Notes under the pieces: model-generated
What the model was told of the DNA's origin: nothing
Databases searched by the model: none
The model's input: only the letters and a program-made list of their open reading frames with translations
Source of the DNA: a virus
Direction: 5' to 3' (one strand)
Virus record (IMG/VR): IMGVR_UViG_3300011008_000022
Length of the DNA stretch: 64,000 bases
Part shown: one piece after another, positions 1-64,000 of the stretch
Layout of the letters: each line of letters opens with the position of its first letter
Position numbering within the stretch: position 1 is the first letter of the stretch
Translations under genes and position numbers: made by a program

Positions 1-1433
1 TCAACAGCCGCTCTGTATCGGGTAATATCATGCGCATGTATGCCAACAGCGAGAACTTCCCTGAAGAGTCGGTAAAAACGGTGCTGGATAGCCTATGGGC
101 TTCTTTCGGTATTCGTTTTGAATATGACTACGAGAAAAAGCATGTACGTGCTTACTACGTCCGCGAGGTGTTCCGTGATACACAGGATCCTATCGACTTC
201 CCTGGACGGGTAATCTCCATGCACAAGATTGCTGAGAAGATTACGGGTGTACGCATGTGCTACTCGGCTGAAAGCAGCAGCAAGGAACAACAGGGTAATG
301 TGCGCTCCGGCAAAAAGGACTATGATACGTCCTACGATTATATCGACTACCCCCAGAATGCTACCATCACGGATAAGCATTATGAAGAGATATTCCGTAC
401 TCCTCAGCAGAATAATGCCAGTGGTAACACGAATGTCTATGTGGATAGGGCAACGGGTAACAAGTACCGTATCAAGGTGAATAGCGATGCGGAAACGGCT
501 ATGGACTTGAAGCCGGTGCTCTTTGAGGTAGGACAGTATAAGGGCGTGGAACTGGGCGACTGCTCAGAACTTAACGAGGACTTCATAGAGGAGATAAAAT
601 CGGACTTCGTGCCGATGGTCTTCAATGATGTAAACTATCAGAATGAGGTCAATTCTGCTGCTGGCTCCATGAAGTCGGATGGCTATCAGATCATCCTGAA
701 TGCTGACCAGGAACAGCCTATCCTTGCGGCTTTCGTCGATGAGGAAATGGAACATGAGTTCCTGGAGCAACGCATCCGTCAGACATTGGCATCTAATGTG
801 GCTGAGTTCTATTTCGACGAGGTACTGGATGGCATGATAGAGAACTATGACCCGTCATCCTCTGATGATGGTAATAGTCCGCTGCAGACGGTCGATTGGG
901 GACTGGCTATCGCTATCATGCGTGGTGGTGGTACGGATGCAACCATACAGACGTATGATCACAACTACGATGGCTTTGGTAACTCGAAATGGCGCACAGT
1001 GGCTGGTCTCTATGCGCTTACGTCTGACAGCCTCGATATGTGGGGCAATGAATACGACTATAACGGTGTATCTCCTGGCATCGGTGGTGGCGAACGCTTC
1101 TCATTGAAGATTCGCTCATGGGTACAGCCGGAATGGGCCAATGCTCCGCTGGTGGATGCTGACGTGGTGGATAGTCAGGGAAACATCGAGAAGAAAATCA
1201 AATCGCGTGGCCTCTTTGACACCTTCATGTCGGAATATGCGAACTTTATCCTAAAACGTCGTAAATACCGCGTCCGCATAGAGTGCTCTGCTGCTCAGGT
1301 GGCAGACGTGCCAAACCATTGGACGCGTCGATTCCGCATCAACGGCATGGTGGGCTTCATTAACAAATTGTCTTATAACGTCTCTGCAAAAGATGGTCTT
1401 AACGGCCTCGAAGTGGAGTTCTATGTTCTATAA
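1..1433 (+). CDS. hypothetical phage protein (virion-module context); N-terminus probably outside the window
   Basis: ORF track 30..1433 (467 aa). The frame is open from nt 3 to the first ATG, so the gene may start upstream. Hairpin follows at 1442-1462. No motif recognised. Confidence 0.6.
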   Translation, partial: NSRSVSGNIMRMYANSENFPEESVKTVLDSLWASFGIRFEYDYEKKHVRAYYVREVFRDTQDPIDFPGRVISMHKIAEKITGVRMCYSAESSSKEQQGNVRSGKKDYDTSYDYIDYPQNATITDKHYEEIFRTPQQNNASGNTNVYVDRATGNKYRIKVNSDAETAMDLKPVLFEVGQYKGVELGDCSELNEDFIEEIKSDFVPMVFNDVNYQNEVNSAAGSMKSDGYQIILNADQEQPILAAFVDEEMEHEFLEQRIRQTLASNVAEFYFDEVLDGMIENYDPSSSDDGNSPLQTVDWGLAIAIMRGGGTDATIQTYDHNYDGFGNSKWRTVAGLYALTSDSLDMWGNEYDYNGVSPGIGGGERFSLKIRSWVQPEWANAPLVDADVVDSQGNIEKKIKSRGLFDTFMSEYANFILKRRKYRVRIECSAAQVADVPNHWTRRFRINGMVGFINKLSYNVSAKDGLNGLEVEFYVL

Positions 1434-11236: not shown

Positions 11237-11248
11237 CTAATCTCCGCC

Positions 11249-11445: not shown

Positions 11446-11505
11446 ATTTTCCTCTAACTACATACAACACTTTTCTCTAACTCCATCATTTTTCCTCTAA
11501 CTGTT
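11446..11505 (+). repeat. three TTTYCTCTAACT repeats at ~21-bp spacing
   Basis: Read directly. TTTCTACAC/CTATACC repeats precede them (11396-11445). Confidence 0.7.
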
Positions 11506-11510
11506 CGCCC

Positions 11511-11610
11511 AGGTTGGTACAAACCTTAGTACAACACAGTACAAACCTCTGATTAGGTTAGTACAAACCTTAGTATAACAAAATACTAACCCCGCTCAGG
11601 TTAGTATTTT
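11511..11610 (+). repeat. AGGTTRGTACAAACCTTAGTA repeats, ending in a 10-bp-stem palindrome
   Basis: Copies at 11511-11536 and 11555-11580. The palindrome is AATACTAACC-ccgctca-GGTTAGTATT (11582-11608). Confidence 0.7.
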
Positions 11611-11853
11611 CTATTCATAAATCCATTATTTCATCAATTCATAATTCAATGGGATATACAAAATAATTCTTTTATCTTCTAAAAATGAATTATTTTGCAC
11701 ACCCCAAAGTTAGTGTGCAGTGCGTGTCAAAAATTGCCACCGATTTGAGGGGTGCGGTGGTAGAGTGCTGCCCAAAATCGCTTGTAACTTATTGAAAATC
11801 AGAGTAACCACCTCGAAAAAACAGTCCCATTCTCGCCCTCGACCGCCGCCTCA

Positions 11854-12140
11854 CTGGATGGGCACCCCCTCCCCCTTCCCCCTGAATTGCTGCAAATATG
11901 CCGCCGGCCCTCCTGGATGGGTGCCTGATGCCCTCGAAGAGGTGCCGAGGGTGTCCGGCTGGCTCAGATCATCACCCAGAACGCCGCCCAGGGTGCCTCT
12001 CTGCTGCCCGTCATCGGTGGCCGGTGGTGGTGCTCTGCTGACATCCTGAAGAGGTGCCCGCGCTGCTGGTGGTGCTCTGCCGGTGCTCATGGATGCCAGA
12101 ACCGCCGCCCAGGGTGCCGAGGTGGTGCCGGTGGTGGTGT
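11854..12140 (+). repeat. GC-rich degenerate ~115-bp tandem duplication, non-coding or decayed
   Basis: Paired motifs: GAAGAGGTGCC (11936 and 12048), CAGAAC(C)GCCGCCCAGGGTGCC (11977 and 12097, one with an extra base), CTGGATGGGYRCC (11854 and 11912), GGTGGTGCTCTGC (x2). Confidence 0.6.
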
Positions 12141-12255
12141 GTGCTTTTATATATATAATAAGGTAAAACAAAGTATAATTTGTTTATAAGTGTTAAAAAT
12201 TCGATTAAATACGAATTTATTTTGTTTTTTGTTTGGTGGTATCAAATTTTATTTT

Positions 12256-30216: not shown

Positions 30217-30714
30217 TTATAGCTTTTTGTTCATACTAACTGTAAATCCCTGCTGTCCTTCAGGGTTCTCATCGTATATCTCAAATCCCAACTTTCTATA
30301 CCAGGGAATGAGGAAAGTCCCTTTGCGGGCACTCAGGTATATCTGTTCCAGCCCCTGCTCTCTCGCCACTCTCTCAACGCGCTTCATTAGCTGGGTACCA
30401 ACACCCTTCTGTCGCTCTTCCTCCAACACCTGTAACGATGTAATGGCACCGGCATCTGTGCGCTCGTTTTCGATAGACAGCATCACCATTCCTCGGCCAC
30501 CATCGACGATGATAGTAAACGATTTACCCCACCACCACAGGTTTTCGTGGATAATCTCTTTACACTGCCTTCTTTCCCATACAGAACCATGATGAAAAAA
30601 CTGCTGTGCCACACGCTTCTCTTCAGGAGAAAAGCGACTACGATATTGCTCTTCCTCTACGATGGCCTCTTGCACAGCCTGTTTCAGTTTCATTAGCTTT
30701 TTGAAATCTACCAT
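30217..30714 (-). CDS. GNAT-family N-acetyltransferase
   Basis: Motif A: LQVLEEERQKGVGTQLMKRVERVAREQG. 165 aa. Confidence 0.7.
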   Translation of the reverse strand: MVDFKKLMKLKQAVQEAIVEEEQYRSRFSPEEKRVAQQFFHHGSVWERRQCKEIIHENLWWWGKSFTIIVDGGRGMVMLSIENERTDAGAITSLQVLEEERQKGVGTQLMKRVERVAREQGLEQIYLSARKGTFLIPWYRKLGFEIYDENPEGQQGFTVSMNKKL

Positions 30715-51072: not shown

Positions 51073-51095
51073 TATCATTCTTCCCCGTTCCGTCT

Positions 51096-51180
51096 GTCGC
51101 TATGCCATAGCGACATTCTCCACTACTCCCAGCCGTTCTCGGCTGGGTTTTTCTTTTCCTCCCAGCGCTTCTCCGCTGGG
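51096..51180 (+). terminator. stack of three hairpins (B, A, A)
   Basis: GTCGCTATGcCATAGCGAC (51096-51114), CCCAGCCGttctCGGCTGGG (51128-51147), CCCAGCGcttctcCGCTGGG (51161-51180). Confidence 0.65.
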
Positions 51181-51213
51181 TCTTTTTGTCCCGTCCTCGC
51201 TGCCGCTTCTTCG

Positions 51214-51221
51214 TATCTTTG
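51214..51221 (+). promoter_or_regulatory. -7 box TATCTTTG
   Basis: 15 nt upstream of ATG 51237, after three stacked hairpins. Confidence 0.5.
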
Positions 51222-51236
51222 TGCAAAATAAGAACA

Positions 51237-51761
51237 ATGGCAGCACAACTCGAAAAACCAATGCGTCGCCCGAATGTGGTCCTGCGCCGCTTCGCGATGG
51301 ATGCCGTGCAAGCACTTCAGGCGAACATGCAGACACAGCATGTGTTCCCGACGGAGATCTACCCAGGCTTCCGTCAGGTCAACGAGTATCGTCACAGACA
51401 TGGCTCCTGGTATGCCACTGGTAAAGGTGCCCGCTCTTTTACTTCCCGCATCGATGCCACTCCTGGGCATGAAGCTATCAGCCTCGGTTTCCGCGACTAC
51501 CTGCGTTTCGTCGATATGGGTACTGTCGGTGGCCGACCGCTCGACGTGGTGCGCCGTGACCGTAAGGCCCGCCATAACCGCCGCTATGTCCGCCAGTGGA
51601 TTGCCGTCATGGGCGAAAGCGCCCGACCATCGATAATGATGGAGGCTCGACATGTAGCCTCTCGTATGCAGCGCTATTACGAAGACTTCTACGGACGCGA
51701 ACTGTCAGTAGAGGTGTTCCGTGATATCGAAGACCTGCCACCACTCGTGTTCCAATTCTAA
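51237..51761 (+). CDS. hypothetical protein
   Basis: ATG at 51237, 15 nt after the TATCTTTG box (51214-51221). 174 aa. Confidence 0.6.
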   Translation: MAAQLEKPMRRPNVVLRRFAMDAVQALQANMQTQHVFPTEIYPGFRQVNEYRHRHGSWYATGKGARSFTSRIDATPGHEAISLGFRDYLRFVDMGTVGGRPLDVVRRDRKARHNRRYVRQWIAVMGESARPSIMMEARHVASRMQRYYEDFYGRELSVEVFRDIEDLPPLVFQF

Positions 51762-51773
51762 TATCTACCAATT

Positions 51774-54700
51774 ATGGCCGATAAACAGATATACATCAAA
51801 ATCAGTGCGGATTCAGCACAACCAGTAGCAGCCGTAAAAGCCATGCGCAACGAACTGTCGCGCTTGCAGAAGGCGTATGATGCCATCAACACGTCCACAG
51901 CTACTGGCGCTCAACGTGCCCAGAAACTGCAAAAGGAAATGGCCGACCTCCGTGCGCTCATCAAACAGCAGGAGGCTGACATGAATAAAGTGTCGAAGGT
52001 GATTACCAATCTGTCGAATGCGTCTTTGTCTCAGCTCAACCAGGCGCTTCGTCAGGTGAAAAAGGAAATCTCGCGCACCAGTGAGTCCAGCCCGAAACTG
52101 GAAGAGTTACGCCAGAAATACAAGGCTATTACCGACCAGATTAAGGTGATGAATGGCGAAATGATTAACATCAAAAAGCACATGGGCGAACTCTCCACGC
52201 AGACGGATTCCTGGCTGCAACGTGCCATCAATCAGCAGAAACAGCTGGTGGAGTCCACGCAGAAGACGAGTAGCGCTTATCAGGGACAGGTCAACATCCT
52301 ACACCAACTCCAAAACGAACAGGCGCGTCGTGCTGTCTCTACCATCAGCGATGGGGGGGCTTCTGCCGATGCACTCCGCACCGCTCGTGCTAACCTGGTG
52401 TCTTATCGCGACCAACTGGGTAAGGGTGGCATCCTGCCGGCATCGGGCAATGTGGCTACTGAGATCGAGCGCATCAATGCCGAACTGAAAAAGTGTGATG
52501 ACCAACTGGACGCTATCGCTGGCAAGGAGAAACAGATTGAATTGACCACCGACCAACTCCAGCAAAAGGCTGATAATATCATCCTCGACCCCAAGAAATT
52601 CTCGCCAAAGGAGATAAAGGCTGCCATCGATGAGATTCAGAAGAAGTTGAACAACCTCGGCACGAATGATACTGCTCGTAAGAAACTCAACGAACAGATG
52701 AAGCAGCTGAAAAACATTCTCGATGGTGTCGATCACGAACTGGTGAATATCGGGGACCTCTTGAAGCCTGGCAACCTCCGCAAAGCACCACTCGAAACGC
52801 TCCAAAAGGCTGCAAAGCAGTTGGAGAATGAAATGGCAAAGCTCAACCGCGACCAACAGCAGTATATCGATAAGCAAAAACAACTCGCCGCTATCCGTGG
52901 CGAGATAGAACGTACCACCGGCGCTATTAACCGTCAGGGGTCTGCATGGAAAACGACGTTTCGCAATATCTCTATGTACTTCGGTGTCTTCCAACTGTTT
53001 TCTATCGCTCAACAGAAACTGCAGGGGATGTTGCAAAGCAACCTGGCTTATTCTGACCAACTCGCCGACATCCGCAAGGTGACGGGTCTCGCCACCAAGG
53101 AGGTCAACGAACTATCTGACAGCCTGGCAACGCTCAACACGCGCTCTACGGTACAGGATTTGGCCGACCTCGCTTATCAAGGCGGTAAGATGGGATTCGG
53201 AAAGTACGGTGTAGAAGGCATGAGCGCATTCGTCCGCGCTGCCGACCAGGTAAAGGTGGCGCTGTCTGATGACCTCGGCGATGACAGCCTCTTGCAGATC
53301 TCCAAGCTCGTCGATACCATGGGACTGATACCTAAACTGGGTGTCGAACGTTCCATGCTTGCTGTCGGCTCATCCATCAACCAGCTTTCGGCCACTTCTA
53401 CGGCATCAGGAACGCATATCGTGGACTTCGCGAAGCGCCTCACAGGTCTCTCGCGTATCACGGGTATCACAACGCCGGAACTACTGGCACTCGGCTCGGC
53501 TGCCGATGCACTTGGGCAGGCTCCTGAAGTCGCGGCCACGGCTTTCGGTAAACTCTTCACGTCGCTGCAAACCAACCACAACCTGATTGAACAGCAGCTG
53601 AACATGGAAAAGGGCACCATCAACAACCTCTTCTCACAGGGTAAGGCGATGGAGGCTATTCTTCAAATCATGGAGAAGATGCGCGAAAAGGGTAATATGA
53701 ATGCCCTCGGCAACATCTGGAAAGACCTCGGTTCTGAGGGACAGCGCCTGATAGGTGTCATGGCTACCATGTCTAAGAATGTCGATACCGTTCGTGCTCA
53801 TGTCGAAGAGTCTAACGTCGCCTTTGAGGAAGCTACGTCTCTTACCAATGAGTACGCTCTGAAACAGGACACAGCCAATGCCATTCTCGAAAAGGGTAAC
53901 AACCTCTGGGCAAAGGCTTTCACCAACCCTGAAGGGGTGGATATGGTCAAGCAGATGGCTCAGGCATGGTACGACCTCTCGAAGTCGATGACTTCCAACG
54001 AGGCTTCCATGTGGATAATGAAAAATCTCCTCGGACTGATTGCTGCTGAATTGAAGATACTCCTCGCACTCCTGCCGGCAATCCTCACAGGTTTGCTCTT
54101 CAAGGGTGCCTCTGTCGCTATCATCGGCCTCGCATCGTCTATCGGACTCATGGGTAAGAATGCGGTACTCGCCACCCTGCAGACAAAGGGATTGGTGGCT
54201 GCATGGCACGCCCTGAATACGGCTCAGAAGATGAACGTCATCGGCCTCTGTATCTCTCTTCTCACGGGTCTCGCTATCGCCATCGCTTCTGTCATCAAGA
54301 AAGGCAACGAGGCTACTACATGGATGCAGGGCTTCAATAGCACCATGTCCGACTTCAACCGTGAGTTTGCTATTGCTGACGACCGCCTGAAGCGCTTTAA
54401 GAAGGCTATCGATGATGCTGCTACTGGCTCACGTCAACGTGCAGCTGCCATCCGTAATTTCAACAAGGAATATGGGCAGTATCTCTCGAAGATGCTCACC
54501 GAGAAATCTACGGCTGATGATATCGCCAAAGCCTATAAGGAGGTGGTGAAGCAACTCCGTGCGAAGATTGCCCTTCAGATGAAGGAAAAGGATATCACCT
54601 CACAGGTGGCTCCTCGTGTCGGATGGTCTGCCGACCGCCTCACAGAATACGACAACGTGGCAGGTGGCTCTGCCTACAATGGCACATGGCTGAAAGCCTA

Positions 54701-57563
54701 TGTCGATGACATGAGGGCTGCCGGAAAGTCTGTCGAAGATATCAATAAAGACCTGGCAAAGAAACTGGGTGTCGAAGGCAAGGTGGCTCGTGATGCTTAT
54801 AACCGCCGTTCTGATAAGACTTTGCGTACTACTTTCTTCGATCAAGAGAGTTATCGGGCACAGGCGCAATATGATATGGATGGTGGTTTTGCTGCCGCCA
54901 GAAATACGACCCGCGCCCTCACCCAAGCCGAACAGATGTTGTATGCCGCTACTCGTTATGCTACGCAGGCGTACTCCGCATCCAACGCCATGAACCGCGT
55001 CAATAAGAAGTGGAAGCCGTTTGAGGAGGACCTATCGACGGTCACTGATGAGACTCCTGGCACCCTCGACAACGATGCACCCGATAAGGAAGCCGAGAAG
55101 CGCCGCAAGGCTGAGGAAGCGGCTCGACGCAAGGCGCTCCGTGCGGAAATGAAGGAGGAACAGGCTAAGGCTCAGGCTATCGTCGATAATGTCAAGAACT
55201 ACTACGAGCGTCAGATTGCTGCCATTACGGAAATGGCTACAAAGACGGGCATGGATTCTGAACTCCAGAAGAAACTCGTCGATGGTATGACCGTCCGCAT
55301 GAATAATGCACTGGCTAATGTCCGTCAGGCTATCGCTGGCACTGAGAACGATTGGGCTGACTTCCGCCAGTCGATGATAAATGACCTCTACGAACCGCTG
55401 TCTGAGGATGGTACTAACCAGTCCACACAGTTGCTCGATAACATCATCCATAATGATATCGACAAACTGAAGGAAATGATTACGGTTCTCTCGAAAGAAC
55501 TGGGACAGAATGGCTCTGTGCTTCTCGATCAGATATGGCGTAAGGCTACTGAGAATGAACTGAAAAACGCTAACCAACAGAACAAGGCATACCAGGAGCG
55601 TCAGAGGGTGCTTCTGGAAAAGAACTATACGGGCAAGGTAAACCTCGACTACGAGAACCAGATGGAACAGTTTGGTGTCGCCGAACTGACCTCTGAACAG
55701 ATTGCTCAGATGATGGGGTGGTCGCAGAAGGGTAACAACGAGGCTATCCAACAGTTTCTCGATGACCGTACCGAACAGTGGCAAAAGGCGTTTGCATCGG
55801 CCCGTAAGAATGTCGTTGACCTGCTCTCTGTCGATGCCAACAGTGAGGATGCACCTGATAAGGTGCTCACTATCCTCTTCGGTAAGGATTACAAGTCTTA
55901 TCTCGCCGGCACGGGCCTCTCGTCACTGCTCGATATGTCTGCCGACCAGTTCAAGGTGTTCTACCAGAAACTCATCGAATACTCTGATGCCTATACTGAT
56001 GCTCAGAAGAAAGCCTACGACGAGGCAAAACGTCGGGCGGATTTCATCTTTAATAACAATCCTACCATTCAGAGTATCGACCAGTCAACACAACAGCTGT
56101 CAACCATCAACAGCGACCAGCAACGCTTCGAGTCTGATAAGAACATCGGACAGCAGATGGGTATGTCCTGGAACATCGATTCTGACCCCGAAATTCTGCG
56201 CTATCGCCTGCTGGCTGAACGTGCCCGTCTCTACTATGAGGATATGGCGCGTCTGCGTGAACAGGATAAGATCTCTGAACAGCAGCTGACGGATGCAAAG
56301 CGTCAGATGATGGAGGCTCAGTCTAACATGGCCGACCAGGTGGCTCGTAAGTTCCATGAGCGGGTGTCTCTGCTCCAGAACTTCTCCGAACCGCTGAACA
56401 CCTTTGCCGAAGGGGTAGGGGAGTCGCTGGGTAACATGATCTACGACACCGAACAGTCGGATGTCAAGATGAAAGACTTGCTGAAAGACATGCTGAAGTC
56501 GTATGTGAAGATGTCGCTGCAACTTATTGCCCAGGACCTCACACGCCGTGTCACTAAGCAACTCTACTACCGTCAGGAGGAAATGGATGAGACAATGCAC
56601 CAGCAGACCATGCTGCAAATACAGCAGCTCTACCAGTCGCTGATGTTGACAGCTCAGACTACTGGCGATGCAGCGCGTCTTACACAACACGCCACATCGA
56701 ATGCTACCGAACTGTCAGCAGAGGCGGGTGCTACCACTGGTAAGGTGGGCCTCGGTATTGCCGGTGGTGCAGCTAAGATCATCGGCACCCTGGGCTTCTG
56801 GGGTATTCCGCTGATTGGTGTGATTACGGCACTCTTGATGGGACTGCTCTCTTGGGCTATCGGATTGGCTTTCGGTGGCGATGACAGCGGTGCCAGTGCA
56901 TCGGATGCTACGCCTAACGTCAAACTCGCCACAGGTATGTTGACGTATGACAGCGGTAACGTGCAGAGTGTGGGCAACGGTTCTCCCGTTGCTTCTCCCT
57001 CCGGCTATGCGCCCTCCGCCTCTCCTGGTGGTAGTGGTGCGCCCGCTGGTGCTGCCGGCGGGGATAGAACGCCTGTCCTCGGTTCTGATGGCTATGTCTA
57101 TCAGGCTCGCCAGGTGCCACAACTGCAGACGGGTCTCGTCACGTCGCCTATCGCCACCATGGTCAACGGACAACCGTCACTGGTTGGCGAACGTGGCCCT
57201 GAAATGGTGATTGGACGCGAGACAACAGCAGCAATGCAGATGGCACGTCCCGACCTCCTCGCGGCTATCGTGAAGTTTGATAAGAACTACTCCAATGGCC
57301 ATGCCTATCGCACCTATGACGAAGGCAACCTCTCCGACTTCGCCACCGTGCCCGATGGATCTCCATCGGGTGAAGGCACTCTCACCAAAGAGGATATCGA
57401 CGGACTCCGTTCTACGCTCTCCGAGTTTACAGCGGTCATGCTGGCTATCAAGCGCAACGGCCTCCATGTCAACAAGTACGGACGTGGTGGCATCGCTCAG
57501 GAGTCGCAGGATGGCGCTAATTTCATGCGTCGTAACTCCGGCGACCGTCTCTGGAAAGGTTAG
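51774..57563 (+). CDS. tape-measure-like protein (1929 aa)
   Basis: Long coiled coils, TP901-type core-like segment (DLADLAYQGGKMGFG..., TPELLALGSAADALGQAPEVAATAFGKLF), and hydrophobic blocks mid-protein and near the C-terminus. In-frame hairpin at 57351-57370. Confidence 0.7.
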   Translation: MADKQIYIKISADSAQPVAAVKAMRNELSRLQKAYDAINTSTATGAQRAQKLQKEMADLRALIKQQEADMNKVSKVITNLSNASLSQLNQALRQVKKEISRTSESSPKLEELRQKYKAITDQIKVMNGEMINIKKHMGELSTQTDSWLQRAINQQKQLVESTQKTSSAYQGQVNILHQLQNEQARRAVSTISDGGASADALRTARANLVSYRDQLGKGGILPASGNVATEIERINAELKKCDDQLDAIAGKEKQIELTTDQLQQKADNIILDPKKFSPKEIKAAIDEIQKKLNNLGTNDTARKKLNEQMKQLKNILDGVDHELVNIGDLLKPGNLRKAPLETLQKAAKQLENEMAKLNRDQQQYIDKQKQLAAIRGEIERTTGAINRQGSAWKTTFRNISMYFGVFQLFSIAQQKLQGMLQSNLAYSDQLADIRKVTGLATKEVNELSDSLATLNTRSTVQDLADLAYQGGKMGFGKYGVEGMSAFVRAADQVKVALSDDLGDDSLLQISKLVDTMGLIPKLGVERSMLAVGSSINQLSATSTASGTHIVDFAKRLTGLSRITGITTPELLALGSAADALGQAPEVAATAFGKLFTSLQTNHNLIEQQLNMEKGTINNLFSQGKAMEAILQIMEKMREKGNMNALGNIWKDLGSEGQRLIGVMATMSKNVDTVRAHVEESNVAFEEATSLTNEYALKQDTANAILEKGNNLWAKAFTNPEGVDMVKQMAQAWYDLSKSMTSNEASMWIMKNLLGLIAAELKILLALLPAILTGLLFKGASVAIIGLASSIGLMGKNAVLATLQTKGLVAAWHALNTAQKMNVIGLCISLLTGLAIAIASVIKKGNEATTWMQGFNSTMSDFNREFAIADDRLKRFKKAIDDAATGSRQRAAAIRNFNKEYGQYLSKMLTEKSTADDIAKAYKEVVKQLRAKIALQMKEKDITSQVAPRVGWSADRLTEYDNVAGGSAYNGTWLKAYVDDMRAAGKSVEDINKDLAKKLGVEGKVARDAYNRRSDKTLRTTFFDQESYRAQAQYDMDGGFAAARNTTRALTQAEQMLYAATRYATQAYSASNAMNRVNKKWKPFEEDLSTVTDETPGTLDNDAPDKEAEKRRKAEEAARRKALRAEMKEEQAKAQAIVDNVKNYYERQIAAITEMATKTGMDSELQKKLVDGMTVRMNNALANVRQAIAGTENDWADFRQSMINDLYEPLSEDGTNQSTQLLDNIIHNDIDKLKEMITVLSKELGQNGSVLLDQIWRKATENELKNANQQNKAYQERQRVLLEKNYTGKVNLDYENQMEQFGVAELTSEQIAQMMGWSQKGNNEAIQQFLDDRTEQWQKAFASARKNVVDLLSVDANSEDAPDKVLTILFGKDYKSYLAGTGLSSLLDMSADQFKVFYQKLIEYSDAYTDAQKKAYDEAKRRADFIFNNNPTIQSIDQSTQQLSTINSDQQRFESDKNIGQQMGMSWNIDSDPEILRYRLLAERARLYYEDMARLREQDKISEQQLTDAKRQMMEAQSNMADQVARKFHERVSLLQNFSEPLNTFAEGVGESLGNMIYDTEQSDVKMKDLLKDMLKSYVKMSLQLIAQDLTRRVTKQLYYRQEEMDETMHQQTMLQIQQLYQSLMLTAQTTGDAARLTQHATSNATELSAEAGATTGKVGLGIAGGAAKIIGTLGFWGIPLIGVITALLMGLLSWAIGLAFGGDDSGASASDATPNVKLATGMLTYDSGNVQSVGNGSPVASPSGYAPSASPGGSGAPAGAAGGDRTPVLGSDGYVYQARQVPQLQTGLVTSPIATMVNGQPSLVGERGPEMVIGRETTAAMQMARPDLLAAIVKFDKNYSNGHAYRTYDEGNLSDFATVPDGSPSGEGTLTKEDIDGLRSTLSEFTAVMLAIKRNGLHVNKYGRGGIAQESQDGANFMRRNSGDRLWKG
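57351..57370 (+). repeat. hairpin in-frame inside the tape-measure CDS
   Basis: caccgtgCCCGATGGAtcTCCATCGGGtgaagg, encoding TVPDGSPSGEG. A decayed copy may lie at 56985-57004 (SPVASPSG). Confidence 0.75.
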
Positions 57564-57571
57564 TCACCGTG

Positions 57572-57591
57572 CCCAGCAGTTTTCGGCTGGG
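57572..57591 (+). terminator. family-A hairpin
   Basis: caccgtgCCCAGCAGttttCGGCTGGGttc. Confidence 0.55.
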
Positions 57592-57636
57592 TTCTCATAA
57601 ATTCATAAATTCATTAAATTATCAATTCATCAAATT

Positions 57637-57900
57637 ATGGAAGAAAAACTTTTCGCTCGTATCGTGGCGCTCCTCACCGCCCACTTCGACAACATGCCTG
57701 CAGCCGAGGACATCCACCTCGACGACAATCTGCATGAAGACCTCAATCTCGATTCTATCGACATTGTGGACTTCATTATGATGTGTGAAACGAACTTCAA
57801 CATTAAACTCGACATGACAGATGCGAAGAACACGCACACCCTGCGCGACCTCATCCGTTCTATCATCGAAGTAAAGCCCAGCCTATGCGACGCACAGTAA
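57637..57900 (+). CDS. acyl carrier protein
   Basis: 87 aa with the phosphopantetheine-attachment motif EDLNLDSIDIVDFIMMCE. Confidence 0.75.
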   Translation: MEEKLFARIVALLTAHFDNMPAAEDIHLDDNLHEDLNLDSIDIVDFIMMCETNFNIKLDMTDAKNTHTLRDLIRSIIEVKPSLCDAQ

Positions 57901-59117
57901 TCACGGGCATGGGCATCTGGTCCTGCATCGGTCAGTCCGTTCAGGAGGTGGCTCAGTCTCTCCGTCTTGGAAAGAGTGGCATCGGCATCGATCCTGAGCG
58001 TACCGCCTACGGCTACCAATCACCCCTTACCGGCATCGTGCCGCGTCCCGACATCAAGGCTCAGGGATTGCGACGCTCTCAGCGCATCACACTCTCCGAA
58101 CCTGGTGAATATGGCTACATGGCCATGAAAGAGGCGCTGACGATGGCTCCTGTCAGCGACCTCTATCGCTGTGGCCTTATCGTCAGCAATGACAGCACTG
58201 CTGGCGCTCTCGCTGAGACAGAGGCTATCATGGCGGAATACCATGACAGCCGACGACTGGGTGCCGGCATGGTGTTCCGCACCCTCAATAGCTCGGTATC
58301 TATGTCGCTGGCTTCCATCTTTGGCATCGGTGGCCTCACACTCTCCGTCTCTGCTGCCTGTGCCGGTGGTGGCCACGCTATCGGTCTCGCTCATTCGCTC
58401 ATTCAGTCCGGCCAACTGGACTGCTGCATTGTGGTAGGCGCTCAGGAGGTAGGACTACATGCCTATACATCCTTTGATGCACTCGGTCTCTTCAGCAAGC
58501 GTACCGACAACCCAGCAGCTGCCTCACGTCCGTTTGACACAGAGCGTGACGGCCTCGTGCCCTCTGGTGGCGCTGCCTGCGTTATCCTCGAAACAGCCGG
58601 ACATGCCGCTATGGGAAACAGAAAACCCTTGGCCATGGTCGATGGCTATGGCTTCTCCACCAGTCCCGATCTCGTTTCTCCCTCTTCCGATGCTATTTAC
58701 CAGTCCATGACCGCCGCCCTATCTGCCGCCACTGTGCCCAGCGGTTCTCCGCTGGGTCCTGGTATCTCCGCTATCATGGCTCACGCTACCTCCACGCCCG
58801 ATGGCGACCGTGCCGAGGCAGAAGCTATCCACCGCTTCTGTCTTGATAATGGTCTATCTCATCCTTTCGTCATCAGCACCAAGGCGCTCACAGGTCACGA
58901 GTGCTGGATGTCGGGTGTCTCTCAGATCGTCTATGCACTCATACAGATGCAAGGTGGTTTCATAGCACCAAACATCAACCTCCGCACCATCGACCCAGCA
59001 GCAGCTACGCTACGCATTCCAACAGCGCCAACCGTCACCACGCTAACCACCGTTCTCTGCAACGCCTTCGGTTTCGGTGGCACCAACAGTAGCCTGGTAA
59101 TCTCTCGCGCTGGCTAA
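57885..59117 (+). CDS. beta-ketoacyl-ACP synthase (FabF/FabB-type, Cys-His-His)
   Basis: RRTVITGMGIWS, active-site SAACAGGGHAI, AHATSTPDGD, TKALTGHECWMSG and NAFGFGGTNSSLVI. The start overlaps the ACP stop by 16 nt. In-frame hairpin at 58737-58756. Confidence 0.8.
   Translation: MRRTVITGMGIWSCIGQSVQEVAQSLRLGKSGIGIDPERTAYGYQSPLTGIVPRPDIKAQGLRRSQRITLSEPGEYGYMAMKEALTMAPVSDLYRCGLIVSNDSTAGALAETEAIMAEYHDSRRLGAGMVFRTLNSSVSMSLASIFGIGGLTLSVSAACAGGGHAIGLAHSLIQSGQLDCCIVVGAQEVGLHAYTSFDALGLFSKRTDNPAAASRPFDTERDGLVPSGGAACVILETAGHAAMGNRKPLAMVDGYGFSTSPDLVSPSSDAIYQSMTAALSAATVPSGSPLGPGISAIMAHATSTPDGDRAEAEAIHRFCLDNGLSHPFVISTKALTGHECWMSGVSQIVYALIQMQGGFIAPNINLRTIDPAAATLRIPTAPTVTTLTTVLCNAFGFGGTNSSLVISRAG
58737..58756 (+). 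repeat. family-A hairpin in-frame inside the ketoacyl-synthase CDS
   Basis: cactgtgCCCAGCGGttctCCGCTGGGtcctgg, encoding TVPSGSPLGPG, just before the AHATST histidine motif. Confidence 0.8.
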
Positions 59118-59124
59118 TCACCGT

Positions 59125-59146
59125 GCCCAGCGCCTCTCCGCTGGGC
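59125..59146 (+). terminator. family-A hairpin
   Basis: caccgtGCCCAGCGcctctcCGCTGGGC. Confidence 0.6.
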
Positions 59147-59265
59147 TTCGCTAACTATTCTTGTACTACCGCTCTGTCGGTAATGTCTTCATTCGGTGGC
59201 TGTGCTGTGAAGCACGGCCACCGCCTTTCTATCATCCTCTCCATCGCTCGTCACTAATCAAAAAG

Positions 59266-59285
59266 CCCAGCCGTTATCGGCTGGG
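59266..59285 (+). repeat. family-A hairpin in a non-coding region
   Basis: CCCAGCCGttatCGGCTGGG. Confidence 0.6.
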
Positions 59286-59562
59286 TCTCTATCTGTCTTC
59301 GTCTATTGTGTGGGACTGTATCGCCACCTCCGCGCTCATCGGTAATATCCAGCGCCGCAAGGCGCTGTGTCAGCGTCAGTGTCATTGGCTGGGGCACCTA
59401 CGGTGGTATCATTCACAGCGGCAACGCCGCTGTCCTCTATATAGCGCAAATAGGCGCATATTACCCCAATTTAATACATGGTGCAAAGGTAATCATTTTC
59501 CGCGACATCACCAAACTTTTTCGCCACTATTTTCTAATTATTTTCCCGCTCCCGTTCTGCAT

Positions 59563-59619
59563 GTCGCTATGTCATAGCGACCAGGACTCCTCTTCCACTC
59601 CCAGCCGTTCTTGGCTGGG
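59563..59619 (+). repeat. family-B, then family-A hairpin in a non-coding region
   Basis: GTCGCTATGtCATAGCGAC and CCCAGCCGttctTGGCTGGG. Confidence 0.6.
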
Positions 59620-60292
59620 CATATCTATCTACCCCGCGCCCCTCAGTGATGGCAAAAGTAATTTCGAGGATGGCATCTTTCTCCCTCTCTTTCCCCTATT
59701 TACCGCGCCTCTCCCTCATTTTTACCCTCCAAAAAGTAAAAATGACGTTATTTTGGCATACCTCATCCTAATTTTGCGAAAAATTCTTTTGAAGAAATGA
59801 TAAAATCCCGTACCCTAAAAGTGATTGAGCAATAAAGCGAAAGCTCCGCTTTCTCCTTTGAGTATCAACGAGTTGTGGGGGAACGGGGTAAGCAGTTAAG
59901 CGGTGCGTTTTGCTACTTTTCAGTGTAATTTCTGAATTTCTATTTTTCTCCTGTATGCGCTAAAGTTTGTAGAGAAATGGGTAAAAATAACTTTTTACTA
60001 TGATAATGTAATGAGTATCAACGACTTACACGAAAACAAAAACGTCTTTTTGATAACTTTTTCCAACTCTCCACAACTTTTACCCAGAATTTTCACCTTG
60101 CATGTTCCGATGGATGGGGCTGCAAAAAGTTATTTTGAAAGTTCAAGGAAGAAAATCTCCCCATTCAGGGAAAAATCTCCCTCGAAAGTGTTAAAACTTA
60201 TATCAAATTAGAAAATAATTGGTATTTTATTTTGTAAATTCAAAGTTTATCTTTAATTTTACGGCAAAATAACAAATATAATCTCAGTTTAT

Positions 60293-60679
60293 ATGAAAAC
60301 CTATCTTATTCTACTCAACTGGGTATTCATCGCCGCTATCATAGGCATCTGCCAGTGGCAACACCCGCTCATCGCTGGTTGGGCTTTCTTGGTCGGCTTC
60401 CTCATGGGGGCATTCTTAACAGTTGGTCTTGTTACCGTCCAGTTCGCTAAGGACCCGTCCAACGAGAAGGAATGGCGCTGGCGACATAGCTACTTCGGTA
60501 AAAACTATCGCATCGAGTTCTGCGTACAGTTGTTGTTGACGGCTACCGCATTCGGACTCTCACTCATGTTCTTCAGATCATTCTGGCTCATTGGTACAGG
60601 CTTATTCGGAGCCTGGTTCCTCAATATCACGGTCGAATGGTTCTGGGCTGCTACCCATCGCTATTATAATAATAAATAA
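60293..60679 (+). CDS. membrane protein (4 TM)
   Basis: 128-aa hydrophobic ORF. Confidence 0.55.
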   Translation: MKTYLILLNWVFIAAIIGICQWQHPLIAGWAFLVGFLMGAFLTVGLVTVQFAKDPSNEKEWRWRHSYFGKNYRIEFCVQLLLTATAFGLSLMFFRSFWLIGTGLFGAWFLNITVEWFWAATHRYYNNK

Positions 60680-60682
60680 GGT

Positions 60683-61675
60683 ATGACTGATCCGTTCGAC
60701 GTTCTCTGTTCTGTTTATACCGATGCCCACGACAACTACGGGCGCTTTGTTGACATGGAAACTGGCGAAATCATCCAGCAGATGACAATTCGCGAGTTCT
60801 GTCTGACGGAGCGCTGGAAACCCGTAGTAGAACAGCTGCGGGCTATGGTGGCTCAGTATGGAGAGAAAGAGGCAAAGGCACGGGATGATTACCGCCAGAC
60901 GAAAACGCTCCTCCCAGGAGCAACGCTGTCCGGCCTCTTTGAACTTCGCGAGGTGTGGAATGAGAAATACCAACGCTATGAGAATGTGTCGCGCCGTCAG
61001 GCTCACCTGTTACAGCACACCGGCTTCCTCTGTATAGATATTGATCATCAGGATAACCAGTCACTCGCTGATATGAAGGTCATCCTGCGCACTCTCCGCC
61101 ATCGACCAGAGGTGGCACTACTGATGAAGTCATGCTCAGGAACGGGTTACTTCGCACTCATACCGCTGGCATACCCTCAGTACCACCGTCAACAGTTTGC
61201 AGCGCTCATCCGTGAGTATGGTGCCCTGGGCATCACACTCGATCGTAAGTGTGCCGATGTAACACGCATCCGTTTCGCATCCTACGACGATAAGCCATAC
61301 ATCAACGCCAACGCCATTCCCTATTCAGGGGTGGACCTTGGCGAACAGATGTTGGCTCCCAAGGCAGCCGTATATACCCAGCGCATCGAGACCGATGACG
61401 AACTGATTACAAAGGTGGAGCGCCTGGTGCAGAAACTGGAACTCACGCACACCGATATCACCAACGACTACGATGTGTGGATTCGTATCGGCATGTCTTT
61501 GGCTACGCTCCCAGAACCATGGGGTAGCAAGTTCTTTCATCGTGTATCTGCCATCAGTCAGAAGTACAACGCTACCGACTGTCAGCGCAAATTCGATTAC
61601 AATAACAATCCCACAACCATCACCATCAACTATTTCTTTGCCAGGTGTAAGGAAGTGGGCATAACTCTCAGATAA
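60683..61675 (+). CDS. primase-like protein (BT4734/VirE N-terminal-like + PriCT-2-like)
   Basis: GFLCIDIDHQDN ... MKSCSGTGYFALIPL, and YDVWIRIGMSLATL..FFHRVSAISQKY. Resemblance by eye only. Confidence 0.45.
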   Translation: MTDPFDVLCSVYTDAHDNYGRFVDMETGEIIQQMTIREFCLTERWKPVVEQLRAMVAQYGEKEAKARDDYRQTKTLLPGATLSGLFELREVWNEKYQRYENVSRRQAHLLQHTGFLCIDIDHQDNQSLADMKVILRTLRHRPEVALLMKSCSGTGYFALIPLAYPQYHRQQFAALIREYGALGITLDRKCADVTRIRFASYDDKPYINANAIPYSGVDLGEQMLAPKAAVYTQRIETDDELITKVERLVQKLELTHTDITNDYDVWIRIGMSLATLPEPWGSKFFHRVSAISQKYNATDCQRKFDYNNNPTTITINYFFARCKEVGITLR

Positions 61676-61682
61676 ATATAAT

Positions 61683-62615
61683 ATGTATCTCATCAAACCA
61701 TCAGTCGAACTTTGGCCGGCTCCTGAAGACTGGCACGAACAGGTAGCACGGGCTGCCCGTCTCTGCTATGCCTCTGAAGGCGGCAAGAAAACCGCAGAAG
61801 AGTTCTGTGAAATGCTGAAGAAACGTAACCACCTGTCGATGTTCAGACATGGATCACGTTACTTCATTATCCCTGATGTCGTTCCTTCAGAACTGACTAA
61901 CGCTACACCCAGCAAGGGTGGTAAGAAAGCGTCCTCTCAACCACCGCTTTGGCTCTTTACGGTCCTCACAAACACACCCTATGTAGGCATCCGTTACCAT
62001 AAGGATAAAAAGGCAAAGACACGCTGCTATTATATTAGCACCAATATCCAGTATCTCATGGATAGTCCCAGCATCGAAGAAATGCTGCGTCCCTACGAGG
62101 TGACACTCCAGCAGTTCATCGGTCACGCTACGTCTGATAATTTCCCAGCAGCTATGAACCTGGTGCGTTATACGGTTTGTGTTACTACGCAGATATCTAC
62201 CAGCCGCGAACTAAACCGCACGTCGCCCAACAACATCGCAGAACAATCTACCCGCTACGTCAACTTTGGCAAAAAGGGTGGCATCACCATCTGTCTGCCT
62301 CATTGGTTCCAGTGCGCACACTGGTCTAAGCGACTGTTGGCCCGTGTCATGTGGAAGTGTAGCGAATGGGCCTATAAACTCGCCCTTTTACTCGGTCTTC
62401 CTGCTCAGGATGCACGAGGATTCCTGGTACTCGACGCTGGAACACGCGTCGCCTACACCTACAACGTCTTCGAGTGGCGCAACATCATGCGCCTCCGTCT
62501 TACTGGAGAGACAGGCAAACCGCATCCTAACGCCCACATCGCTGCTCAACTCATCCACGATGCCATCCTTCCGGCTATGCGCATCTATGCAGGTGAAGCA
62601 GCTACGCTCGTATAG
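61683..62615 (+). CDS. ThyX-family (flavin-dependent thymidylate synthase-like) protein with a non-canonical signature
   Basis: ARLCYAS, NHLSMFRHGS, ..SRELNRTSPNNIAEQSTRYV (canonical R..RHR..S....S.RY, with RHR replaced by RTS), and AQDARGFL...FEWRNIMRLR. Confidence 0.55.
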   Translation: MYLIKPSVELWPAPEDWHEQVARAARLCYASEGGKKTAEEFCEMLKKRNHLSMFRHGSRYFIIPDVVPSELTNATPSKGGKKASSQPPLWLFTVLTNTPYVGIRYHKDKKAKTRCYYISTNIQYLMDSPSIEEMLRPYEVTLQQFIGHATSDNFPAAMNLVRYTVCVTTQISTSRELNRTSPNNIAEQSTRYVNFGKKGGITICLPHWFQCAHWSKRLLARVMWKCSEWAYKLALLLGLPAQDARGFLVLDAGTRVAYTYNVFEWRNIMRLRLTGETGKPHPNAHIAAQLIHDAILPAMRIYAGEAATLV

Positions 62616-62619
62616 CATT

Positions 62620-62639
62620 CTCAGCCGCTCTCGGCTGGG
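62620..62639 (+). terminator. family-A hairpin (slightly degenerate)
   Basis: CTCAGCCGctctCGGCTGGG, after the stop at 62615. Confidence 0.55.
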
Positions 62640-62673
62640 TTACAATAGTATCAATTTCTTAATATCTACAACA

Positions 62674-63126
62674 ATGGAACAAAAATTCGTAAATTACCCC
62701 CCCCTGGAAGACCTGAAACAGCTCTCCGAGGAAGAAGTACGAGCATGGTTTGGTAAAGTTAATACCTACCGTGATGAAGCTATCATGCAGATCCGTACCA
62801 AGTGCGACAATGACGTGTTCAACGTCCGTACCGAACAGCAGGTAGAACGCAACCGCATCATCTGCCTTATCGACCTCAAACGGTCACAACTGCCCTCTGG
62901 TGGCACACCCGATGAGCGCGAAAAAGCATTAGCACTGCGTCAGGAAATGCACAACCTCGATCATCAGATGCAACTCAATGACATCAATACGCAGAAGAAA
63001 ATCTATGACCTCAAACACGAGAAGAAAGTGGCCATCAACGCACTGCAACGTCAGTGGGAAACAGCAACAGGTGTCCTTAAACAAGCACTGATTTTCGTCT
63101 GCGAAAAAGCAAAGGAAACAACGTAA
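62674..63126 (+). CDS. hypothetical coiled-coil protein with a C8 tract in codons 8-11
   Basis: ATG at 62674 (MEQKFVNYPPLEDL). The tract 62697-62704 is in-frame as sequenced. Confidence 0.55.
   Translation: MEQKFVNYPPLEDLKQLSEEEVRAWFGKVNTYRDEAIMQIRTKCDNDVFNVRTEQQVERNRIICLIDLKRSQLPSGGTPDEREKALALRQEMHNLDHQMQLNDINTQKKIYDLKHEKKVAINALQRQWETATGVLKQALIFVCEKAKETT
62697..62704 (+). repeat. C8 homopolymer, flank AATTA, in codons 8-11 of a plus-strand gene
   Basis: aAATTACCCCCCCCtgg. In-frame as sequenced. Confidence 0.9.
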
Positions 63127-63153
63127 CAAAATAACTGTTATGATAAATAGACT

Positions 63154-63984
63154 ATGAGCAAGACAAAGAACCTCGCCATCTACCGCCCTAACGGTGCTGC
63201 TGCAGAATACAGCACATGGGCTTGCAACCTCTACAACGGCTGCTCTCATTCCTGTACCTACTGCTACTGCAAACGCGGTGTGTTCGGTCATATTCTCGGT
63301 AAGGATGTGCCAGAGATTAAGGCCCTACTCGGTGGTGATCCTAAGAAAGCGTATCATCTTTTCTGCCAAGAACTTGATAAATATCGTGACCAGATTACCG
63401 CCGATGGCGGGCTGTTCTTTTCTTTCTCAACGGACCCGATGCTGCGTGAGGAAATCACGCTCACCCTGAACTGCATAGAATATGCCTTCAGCCAACAGGT
63501 TCCCGTCATCATCCTCACCAAAGCTACATGGTGGGTACGCGAAGACTGGGTGATTGGCGCTCTCTATGCACACCGTGACCTTCTCACCATCGGCTTCACA
63601 CTCACCGGCCACGACGAACTCGAACCTGGCGCTCCTGCTAACGTATCGCGTCAGACGGCACTTATCTACCTCTCAAAGATGCAGTTCCGCACCTTTGCCA
63701 GCATGGAGCCGGTCATCGACTTCGTTTCCTCACTGGCAATCATCCGCACCATAGCCTCCGACTGTCAGGAGTTCCGCATCGGCCTGCTCTCTCCCTACAG
63801 CAAGAAACGCTATGACTCCGCCCAGTGTGAGCGCTTCATCCGTGAAGTGCAGCGCCTCTCCAAAGAGCACAACTTCCGCATCCTCTGGAAAGAGTCTATC
63901 CGCCGTTTCTGCCGTGATTGGTCTATTTGCCCAGATTTATGTAACCCAGTGCTCGGTGATTCCGTTGCCGAGACAAAAGATTAA
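63154..63984 (+). CDS. radical SAM protein (SplB/COG1533-like)
   Basis: NLYNGCSHSCTYCYC (CX3CX2C). 276 aa. Confidence 0.65.
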   Translation: MSKTKNLAIYRPNGAAAEYSTWACNLYNGCSHSCTYCYCKRGVFGHILGKDVPEIKALLGGDPKKAYHLFCQELDKYRDQITADGGLFFSFSTDPMLREEITLTLNCIEYAFSQQVPVIILTKATWWVREDWVIGALYAHRDLLTIGFTLTGHDELEPGAPANVSRQTALIYLSKMQFRTFASMEPVIDFVSSLAIIRTIASDCQEFRIGLLSPYSKKRYDSAQCERFIREVQRLSKEHNFRILWKESIRRFCRDWSICPDLCNPVLGDSVAETKD

Positions 63985-63992
63985 CCACCGTG

Positions 63993-64000
63993 CCCAGCCG
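63993..64000 (+). terminator. 5' arm of a family-A hairpin, cut by the window edge
   Basis: ccaccgtgCCCAGCCG at the end of the window. Confidence 0.5.

Follow-up and report, generated by a model that had tools for sequence, protein, structure and literature searches.

The 64,000-nt stretch of viral DNA held in IMG/VR as IMGVR_UViG_3300011008_000022 (referred to here as the window) carries, at positions 57637 to 59117 of its plus strand, a gene for an acyl carrier protein (ACP) followed by a gene for a β-ketoacyl synthase (KAS). The two genes had been singled out in an earlier note made from the letters of this DNA. We found that the pair belongs to a lineage of minimal ketosynthase (KS)-ACP cassettes that is widespread among viruses but undescribed. 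Its KAS is an elongating ketosynthase of the homodimer type with the FabB fold; the Cys-His-His-Lys site is complete, and the enzyme falls in a phage-borne branch of a family that is related to the KS found in specialized-lipid clusters of Bacteroidota. With moderate confidence, we interpret the pair as a functional, minimal, orthogonal chain-elongation module that uses host FabD, AcpS, and reductive enzymes.

ACP and KAS encoded in the window

The 87-aa ACP (57637..57900, plus strand) matched the Pfam PP-binding profile PF00550 (E = 9.7e-10; 39 bits against a cut-off of 20.8), ACPs in the PDB, and PHROG ACP families. Fourteen ACP models of NCBIfam were also matched, all under their equivalog cut-offs. 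The 410-aa KAS (57885..59117, plus strand) matched ketoacyl-synt PF00109 (E = 2.7e-23) and Ketoacyl-synt_C PF02801 (E = 1.4e-16), and it aligned end to end with solved FabB structures. The Pfam matches of both proteins were above the gathering thresholds, and the two open reading frames (ORFs), with the 16-nt overlap between them, were present as first reported.

The active sites that the earlier note described as intact were also found. In the ACP, the D-S-[LI]-D motif was present at the start of helix II, and Ser40 (codon 57754-57756) in LDSID is the predicted phosphopantetheine-attachment site. In the KAS, Cys159 (58359-58361) lies in SAACAGG, His300 (58782-58784) in HATSTPDGD, and Lys333 and His338 in STKALTGH; residues 337-344 read GHECWMSG, and the gating loop FGFGGTN begins at F395.

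The designation of the KAS as FabF-type, by contrast, had to be revised. The enzyme scored better with the FabB equivalog model NF005935 (274.7 bits) than with the FabF model TIGR03150 (213.3 bits), and neither cut-off (630 and 493.75, respectively) was reached. FabB was likewise the better match in the PDB (E = 1e-64 versus 1e-47 for FabF). The identities to E. coli enzymes were 37% for FabB, 30% for FabF, 26% for ApeR, and 22% for ApeO, and no PHROG family was matched by the KAS. The AlphaFold model had a mean predicted local distance difference test score (pLDDT) of 94.5 and a predicted template modeling score of 0.94, and its 25 best PDB matches were all FabB, with template modeling (TM) scores of 0.93-0.94 and root-mean-square deviations of 1.5-1.9 Å. 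These results indicate that the KAS is FabB-like and of the HExWM type described below.

The pocket of the KAS was then compared with that of ApeR, in which Tyr135 stacks on the aryl starter and forms a pocket with Phe202 (PMC8358021). The KAS has Val at the position of the aryl-stacking Tyr, as in FabB, and its gating loop, F-G-F-G-G, is of the FabB type, whereas ApeR and ApeO have F-A-F-G-G. Because of the Val and the FabB-type gating loop, aliphatic substrates are suggested for the KAS. An assignment as an ApeO- or ApeR-like enzyme was rejected on the low identities given above and on the differing pocket and gating motifs.

For the phage ACP, phmmer scores were 31-32 bits with the ACPs located after the KS in Bacteroidota clusters (about 30-32 overall), 29.9 bits with E. 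coli ApeF, and 17.0 bits with E. coli AcpP. The phage ACP thus appears nearer to cluster-type ACPs and ApeF than to AcpP, although this comparison, in which E. coli supplied the housekeeping AcpP, is indicative only. The overlap of the two genes covers 57885-57900, with the ATG of the KAS inside the Leu-Cys codons of the ACP, and a 16-nt overlap recurs in three related contigs (L003, L004, and L012). This arrangement suggests that the ACP is translationally coupled to the KAS. The conserved C-terminal Cys of the ACPs was considered as a functional residue and rejected, as it is the embedded start codon of the KAS. In a 92.8-kb contig whose KAS is 46% identical (L154), a second ACP-like ORF was observed at 11963, ~4.7 kb downstream of the ACP-KAS pair.

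Placement of the KAS among cellular enzymes

An exhaustive search among 1.84 billion representatives showed that the relatives of the KAS grade from 61% down to ~42% identity and then merge with ordinary FabB at 36-40%. In a scan across 185,579 species genomes, the best cellular identity to the window KAS was 50%. The top cellular matches (44-50%) were all from Bacteroidota: Bacteroidales (among them Prevotella, Alistipes, and Ca. Coprenecus), Flavobacterium, Chryseobacterium, Chitinophagaceae, and Dyadobacter. At 40-45% were B. fragilis (42%), a second Prevotella (41%), and a few Myxococcota, Desulfobacterota, and alphaproteobacterial metagenome-assembled genomes (MAGs). Ordinary proteobacterial FabB was 35-38% identical.

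In nearly all genomes sampled, the Bacteroidota homolog was located in a ketoreductase (KR)-KS-ACP string of an aryl-polyene (APE)/flexirubin-type cluster, which was recognized by comparison with the annotated Ape cluster of E. coli CFT073. The cellular relatives P0127 and P0128 are located in clusters that contain KR, ACP, an ApeP/ApeI-type dehydratase, a 4HBT thioesterase, further KS/chain-length factor (CLF) genes, LolA, MMPL, and an FAD oxidoreductase. The phage and cluster KSs have in common a signature, GHE[CMFL]WM[SA]G just after the second catalytic His and HATST at the first His, where FabB and FabF have GH[SAL]LGA[AT]G and HGTST. We define these enzymes here as HExWM-type KSs; the window KAS carries the motif and falls within the clade.

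Neighbor-joining trees with 200 bootstraps supported this grouping. The HExWM clade was recovered at 94%, and the proteobacterial FabB clade, recovered at 100%, excluded the window KAS. The Bacteroidota cluster KSs formed a clade of their own at 100% with every phage sequence excluded, and nesting of the phage KAS inside the host Bacteroidota clade was rejected on this basis. The 12 representatives of the window's phage family grouped at 83%. All phage KASs were united as one clade at 41%, and a sister relationship of phage KASs to Bacteroidota was recovered at 10%. The phylogeny that the earlier note called for set the KAS apart from FabB, with low support for phage monophyly and for the sister relationship.

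A widespread viral lineage of two-gene cassettes

A family-profile scan of IMG/VR yielded 225 confirmed stretches, that is, at least 225 relatives, and the detailed counts given here refer to the best 80. The HExWM signature was found at 72 of these 80 viral loci, and a directly adjoining ACP was likewise found at 72 of 80. Among the 72 loci with an ACP, the order was ACP then KAS in 10 (the window family) and KAS then ACP in 62, and the ACP serine motif was kept in all 72. No recognizable KR, dehydratase (DH), thioesterase (TE), or malonyl-CoA:ACP transacylase lay within 6 kb at any of the 80 loci, and no CLF, dehydratase, thioesterase, or exporter was found at them. ACP/KAS pairs had been described in the earlier note as rare in phages. 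This held for curated viral proteins (BFVD), among which only A0A8S5QDX3 was a good KAS match, but not for IMG/VR. Most phage matches to the KAS obtained with tblastn (25-37%) looked like host FabB or FabF on "phage" records and were set aside.

The nearest sister sequences of the window family were phage-borne too, in unrelated phages. A 55-kb contig (L019) carried KR-KAS-ACP (9318-12214) followed by a 265-aa protein and was the only viral locus noted with a KR. A 159-kb contig with a T4-like replisome and a terminase (L020) carried KAS-ACP (10001-12034) followed by a 224-aa protein, and a 26.6-kb contig (L021) carried KAS-ACP. A conserved third gene beside the pair, such as a phosphopantetheinyl transferase (PPTase) or an acyltransferase, was not found, the proteins that follow the ACP in L019, L020, and L183 having no Pfam match. 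The 265-aa and 224-aa proteins may be unrecognized partner enzymes; a homolog of the latter follows the ACP in L209.

Next, the genomic position of the pair was compared among the relatives. The order tape-measure protein (TMP)-like gene, ACP, KAS, noncoding gap, 128-aa protein, primase-like protein, and ThyX was kept in the window lineage down to 68% KAS identity; in L003 and L004, the pair follows the TMP gene, as in the window. In L009, the order is ACP, KAS, one gene, and then a TMP homolog. In L011 and L012, the pair follows a DNA methylase gene with no TMP nearby (in L012, no TMP separates the methylase from the ACP). In L058, L059, L064, L183, and L015, which represent a larger sister group, the pair is located between a homolog of an 873-aa protein of the window and a homolog of the window ORF at 4659-5696, with a 3-nt gap to the latter; the L015 sequence ends just after the KAS. 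The same slot is empty in L040-L056 and L062. Synteny, which the earlier note had proposed to check, was thus conserved near the window, but the cassette relocates further out. At least four genomic contexts were seen for the pair, whose two genes stay together in each, and it persists across KAS divergence down to ~40%. These results indicate that the cassette behaves like a mobile accessory unit whose association with tail modules recurs but is not universal.

Selection on the two genes was estimated from the ratio of nonsynonymous to synonymous substitution rates (dN/dS) between the window and L003 or L004. The KAS gave 0.117 and 0.151, respectively, and the ACP gave 0.034 and 0.264, values that show purifying selection on both. 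Furthermore, Cys159, His300, Lys333, and His338 were invariant in the family alignment, and the Cys-His-His triad, the catalytic Lys, and the GFGG gating loop were invariant in 80/80 viral homologs. A recent, decaying capture of host fabF-acpP, the outcome by which the earlier note would have been overturned, was rejected, since cellular identity is at most 50%, the active sites are intact in 80/80, and the KAS dN/dS is 0.12-0.15.

Pathway enzymes sought around the pair

We searched for the other enzymes with which such a pair could act. Malonyl transferase, KR, DH, enoyl reductase, TE, and PPTase were not found in the 68 further ORFs of the window (Pfam, E <= 1e-3), in the 10 kb downstream (precomputed Pfam annotations), or in the 10 kb upstream (Pfam scans of six large ORFs). 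No gene for a FabA partner was found. The cluster genes that accompany cellular HExWM-type KSs (KR, ApeP/ApeI dehydratase, 4HBT thioesterase, KS/CLF, LolA, and MMPL) were absent from the window, its flanks, and the 80 viral loci. The only acyl- or acetyltransferase-type gene in the window was a generic GNAT at 30217-30714 on the minus strand, 27 kb away. Because no other fatty acid synthesis (FAS) or polyketide synthesis enzymes were found in the part of the genome covered by these searches, the pair must rely on host enzymes or stop after one condensation. Both the absence of these enzymes from the window and the choice between host FAS II and a single condensation agree with the earlier description.

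Transcription signals and neighboring sequences

The gene directly 5' of the pair (51774..57563, plus strand; 1929 aa) scored 40.6 bits with PhageMin_Tail PF10145 (cut-off, 33.2) and also matched a tape-measure family of PHROG (E = 9e-29), in agreement with its first description as tape-measure-like. The nearest promoter-like motif upstream of the pair is the Bacteroidota-type -7 motif TATCTTTG at 51214..51221 (plus strand), and no TAnnTTTG match was found on the plus strand between 51214 and 59769. The ACP start is preceded by a 45-nt leader (57592..57636, plus strand) that, as read from the sequence, is G-free and AT-rich with repeated AATTCAT. The G-free leader and the lack of a TAnnTTTG motif belonging to the pair had both been noted before and were confirmed.

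Between the TMP gene and this leader lies a hairpin element copy, TCACCGTG-CCCAGC-N8-GCTGGG (57572..57591, plus strand), which starts 9 nt after the TMP stop and has a weak stem and no T tract; it was not terminator-like in the terminator scan. A further copy (59126..59145, plus strand) starts 9 nt after the KAS stop. The region's strongest terminator-like site, a hairpin with a 13-bp stem followed by CCTTTCT (59194..59223, plus strand), is located 77 nt after the KAS stop and is likely the end of a TMP-ACP-KAS unit. Because the sole upstream promoter-like motif is at 51214, the terminator-like site is at 59194-59223, and the 57572 hairpin is weak, the pair is probably cotranscribed with the tape-measure-like gene in the window phage. 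The proposal that the pair sits in a late or virion operon was borne out in part, by the promoter-like and terminator-like signals in common with the TMP gene and by the tail neighbors in L009 and the sister group; the methylase context in L011 and L012 and the replication genes around the pair do not fit it.

In the window as a whole, the TAnnTTTG matches were dominated by the variant TATCTTTG, mostly on the plus strand and just upstream of ORFs; the intergenic plus-strand sites of this type include 2707, 8857, 16389, 21362, 24980, 28234, 41279, and 51214. This dominance suggests a phage-specific promoter consensus.

The hairpins belong to a repeated element of ~30-35 nt, [stop codon][T/C]CACCGTG-CCCAGCCGTTCTCGGCTGGG-TCT, of which the window holds 21 copies against 0.03 expected, at sites that include 2609, 6277, 17292, 28892, 42187, 47230, 57572, 58737, and 59126. 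Its loop has a constant plus-strand orientation, even within the minus-strand gene block. A plus-strand stop codon is found within 100 nt of 13 copies, and eight copies begin 7-10 nt past such a codon. Four are located inside ORFs, namely those of the ligase (23549), the KAS (58737), and two minus-strand genes (37392 and 40649). The element is limited to the species-level lineage of the window and is absent in relatives of ~70% identity. The in-frame copy in the KAS, CCCAGCGGTTCTCCGCTGGG (58737..58756, plus strand; -22 kcal/mol, z = -3.9), was present as the earlier note had stated. It encodes PSGSPLG, a lineage-specific surface-loop insertion that is absent in the ~70%-identity relatives L004, L005, L006, and L008 and that forms the only disordered loop of the AlphaFold model (pLDDT <50 at residues 285-289 only).

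Downstream of the KAS, a noncoding gap of 1175 nt (59118..60292), estimated earlier at ~1.1 kb, separates it from the genes for the 128-aa, primase-like, and ThyX proteins. The 3' half of the gap (about 59730-60282) was 71-77% identical in nucleotides to L004 and L008, relatives whose proteins are ~70% identical, with no reading-frame preference, and its last ~90 nt were kept even in L011 and L012. Lying upstream of the primase-like operon, the segment 59730-60282, which had no Rfam match, could have a regulatory role, act as an origin, or encode an unannotated RNA.

The phage and its likely host

A DNA search of GenBank phages with positions 51000-64000 for near-identity gave no match. Exact or near-exact copies of the window KAS were listed from metagenomes in at least 120 sequence clusters, on contigs of 100-107 kb and a few longer ones. 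The KAS was also present in IMG/VR genomes ~101-104 kb long, and one of these is a circular permutation with respect to the window. The TAnnTTTG motif was enriched in the window (62 observed versus 29 expected), and a homolog of another phage protein, the 345-aa product of 4659-5696, carries a Bacteroidaceae MAG label. Because of the motif enrichment and this label, a Bacteroidota host is proposed as probable; the phage is abundant, with a genome of ~100 kb.

The pair is embedded in a window of mainly replication and nucleotide-metabolism genes. The former include an NAD-dependent ligase, a sliding clamp, a DUF5906 helicase/primase, and a BT4734/PriCT primase-like protein; ThyX, dUTPase, a 3'-phosphoadenosine 5'-phosphosulfate reductase-like protein, several DNA methylases, ParA, and a holin are also encoded. 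With the tape-measure-like gene upstream and the primase-like and ThyX genes downstream, the pair qualifies as viral auxiliary metabolic genes. Scans of the window for tRNAs and Rfam families gave no match.

Several other features of the genome were observed. The window starts inside the gene of the 873-aa protein, so that the ORF listed at 30..1433 (window 1-1433) gives only its C-terminal 467 aa; the full protein (L036, 8783-11404) is conserved across at least 40 IMG/VR contigs, 77-107 kb long, and had no Pfam, PHROG, or PDB sequence match. The 345-aa protein is all-beta (model pLDDT 84), has very many sequence variants in metagenomes, and likewise had no PDB sequence match. In a fold search, it gave only weak, partial tail-tube-type matches (monocin tube, Mu baseplate, and gene transfer agent neck; E ~0.01), and its model, mostly beta-strand with short helices only, gives no hint of an HK97-type capsid protein. 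The tape-measure-like gene (51774-57563) lies ~46 kb from this putative tail-tube-like gene (4659-5696), amid replication genes, and in L009 the TMP homolog adjoins homologs of window genes at 7.7-8.7 kb. The placement of the TMP gene in the window, L009, and L012 indicates large rearrangements within the phage family. In the ThyX-like protein (61683-62615; 310 aa), the Thy1 profile covers residues 140-274 only, and the extra ~140 aa at the N terminus have no assignment. Past the end of the window, a near-identical contig (L023, 8148-11340) carries two copies of a gene pair whose products are 150 aa and 276 aa long, the latter radical-SAM-like; next come a Tad2-like gene, more N6/N4 and Dam methylases, YopX, and an NfeD-like gene.

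Function of the pair

If the pair is a chain-elongation module, a host AcpS-type transferase would convert the phage ACP to its holo form, and host FabD would load it with malonate. An aliphatic acyl chain from a host acyl-ACP would move onto Cys159 of the KAS, which would condense it with malonyl-ACP to give 3-oxoacyl-ACP, and host FabG, FabZ, and FabI would process this product. The infected cell would gain a phage-controlled extra elongation at the one irreversible step of FAS II. The product could contribute to membrane or lipid A supply late in infection, or it could be of a particular chain length.

Some of our results weigh against this interpretation. Of five AcpP-docking residues in FabB, three (K63, R66, and R124) are replaced by S, I, and H in the KAS, which makes cross-talk with the host ACP uncertain. 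Acceptance of the phage ACP by host FabD, AcpS, FabG, FabZ, and FabI is something that we infer, and the host itself is proposed solely from the promoter-motif enrichment and the one Bacteroidaceae MAG label. No acyltransferase or thioesterase that could act as a release enzyme for the acyl-phage-ACP is encoded near the pair, and the inspected part covers all but ~13-18 kb of the phage genome. The trees were built by neighbor-joining only. Finally, the nearest cellular relatives belong to specialized-lipid clusters rather than to housekeeping FAS.

This last point would also accommodate a specialized-lipid module, in which the pair plugs into, boosts, or redirects a host APE/flexirubin-type pathway for outer-membrane lipids or makes a related polyketide-like lipid, and not general fatty acids. 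The location of the closest cellular homologs in Bacteroidota KR-KS-ACP strings, the scores of the phage ACP against cluster ACPs and E. coli ApeF relative to AcpP, and the KR-KAS-ACP order of the sister phage L019, which is that of the clusters, all point in this direction. However, the phage KASs fall outside the Bacteroidota cluster clade; the window KAS resembles E. coli ApeR and ApeO only distantly, lacks the aryl-stacking Tyr of ApeR, and has a FabB-like gating loop, and neither CLF nor dehydratase, thioesterase, or exporter was found at any phage locus examined; we consider this role rather unlikely. The absence of release or processing enzymes at the 72 viral loci and the divergence of the residues that dock host AcpP would be consistent with sabotage or counter-defense, and a Tad2-like gene, of a family associated with anti-defense, lies downstream of the window in close relatives. 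The pair would then trap malonyl-ACP or acyl chains on phage ACP as a dead end, or it would stand in for a host condensing enzyme that is targeted or switched off during infection, so that envelope growth is reprogrammed or arrested, not fed. A sink, however, needs no decarboxylative condensation site and gating loop that are fully conserved across all viral homologs, and we judge this explanation distinctly unlikely.

The tail-module neighborhood raises a further explanation, suggested in the earlier note, that the pair makes an acyl group for a virion (tail or tape-measure) protein or a host-envelope component. The pair follows the TMP gene in the window, L003, and L004, precedes a TMP homolog in L009, lies 3 nt upstream of the weakly tail-tube-like gene in L183-type phages, and has promoter-like and terminator-like signals in common with the TMP gene. 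Yet no acyltransferase stands beside the pair in the 80 loci, the sole GNAT of the window is far off on the other strand and of a generic acetyltransferase type, the pair adjoins methylase genes and no TMP in L011 and L012, and the tail-tube label derives from partial matches with E ~0.01. Acylation of a virion component thus found no direct support, and we regard it as very unlikely. An unlikely but broader possibility is that the cassettes are a phage-specific acyl-transfer system, that is, ancient viral two-protein synthases, typically expressed with tail genes, whose 3-oxoacyl or unusual-length thioester would be used beyond membrane supply, for example in attaching lipid to a protein that is part of the tail or is ejected, such as the tape measure, in an outer-membrane or lipid A change that blocks superinfection, or in a small-molecule signal, the transfer step being carried out by a protein that sequence does not allow one to recognize. 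The empty slot in L040-L056 and L062 indicates that the pair is not essential to the whole phage family and might suggest an inert passenger, host genes once captured that play no part in infection. The purifying selection seen for ACP and KAS alike, the intact catalytic residues, the conserved overlap architecture, the distance from any cellular sequence (at most 50% identity), and persistence of the pair down to ~40% KAS identity make that extremely improbable.

Comparison with known systems

The FabBs of E. coli and V. cholerae (PDB 1dd8 and 4xox) resemble the KAS in length, in the Cys-His-His-Lys site, and in the F-G-F-G-G loop, at 35-37% identity. Unlike them, the KAS has GHECWMSG for GHSLGAAG and HATST for HGTST, lies outside the FabB clade, carries Ser at G107 and Leu at F229, and has lost three AcpP-docking basic residues. 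The KS-ACP of the Bacteroidota clusters, the positional counterpart of ApeQ-ApeR and ApeF, belongs to the same HExWM clade (41-50% identity) and likewise consists of a KS adjoining a small ACP, but the phage pair is without the KR, DH, TE, CLF, LolA, and MMPL genes of these clusters, and the order is ACP then KAS in the window phage family and KS then ACP in the clusters. ApeR of proteobacterial APE clusters is a homodimeric FabB-like ketosynthase, and ApeF is thought to deliver malonyl units (PMC8358021). Like the KAS, ApeR is a stand-alone FabB-like KS; it works with dedicated ACPs and adjoins a KR. The KAS differs from it by the low identity and the missing Tyr described above, and ApeR has F-A-F-G-G and no HExWM.

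Rhizobial AcpXL with FabF1XL and FabF2XL, a dedicated ACP with its ketosynthases, lengthens ordinary acyl chains into the very-long-chain fatty acid that lipid A carries. This cellular system uses housekeeping reductive enzymes and also encodes a dehydratase and a dedicated acyltransferase, LpxXL. By analogy, the phage pair may follow the same logic, a private ACP and condensing enzyme that borrow the rest of FAS II.

In the literature searched, the only FAS-type genes described for phages were ACPs standing alone and fabG-acpP-fabF strings, in host order, in predicted prophages. Such runs occur in predicted roseobacter prophages (PMC8224337), and phage ACP auxiliary genes form PHROG 5934. Unlike both of these, the window KAS belongs to a separate, deeply diverged viral lineage. 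A0A8S5QDX3, an uncharacterized KS3-domain protein of the metagenomic BFVD entry "Siphoviridae sp. ctbvd11", was 41% identical to the KAS with a TM score of 0.92 and is probably a member of its viral clade.

These results show that a two-gene KS-ACP design, with no other pathway enzyme seen, recurs in dozens of large phage genomes. The HExWM signature separates these enzymes from FabB and FabF in annotation and links the viral KASs to the uncharacterized ketosynthase of widespread APE/flexirubin-type clusters. The pair provides a testable case of a virus controlling the committed step of lipid chain elongation in Bacteroidota and, if its product is something other than bulk fatty acid, would represent a new kind of phage-host chemistry.

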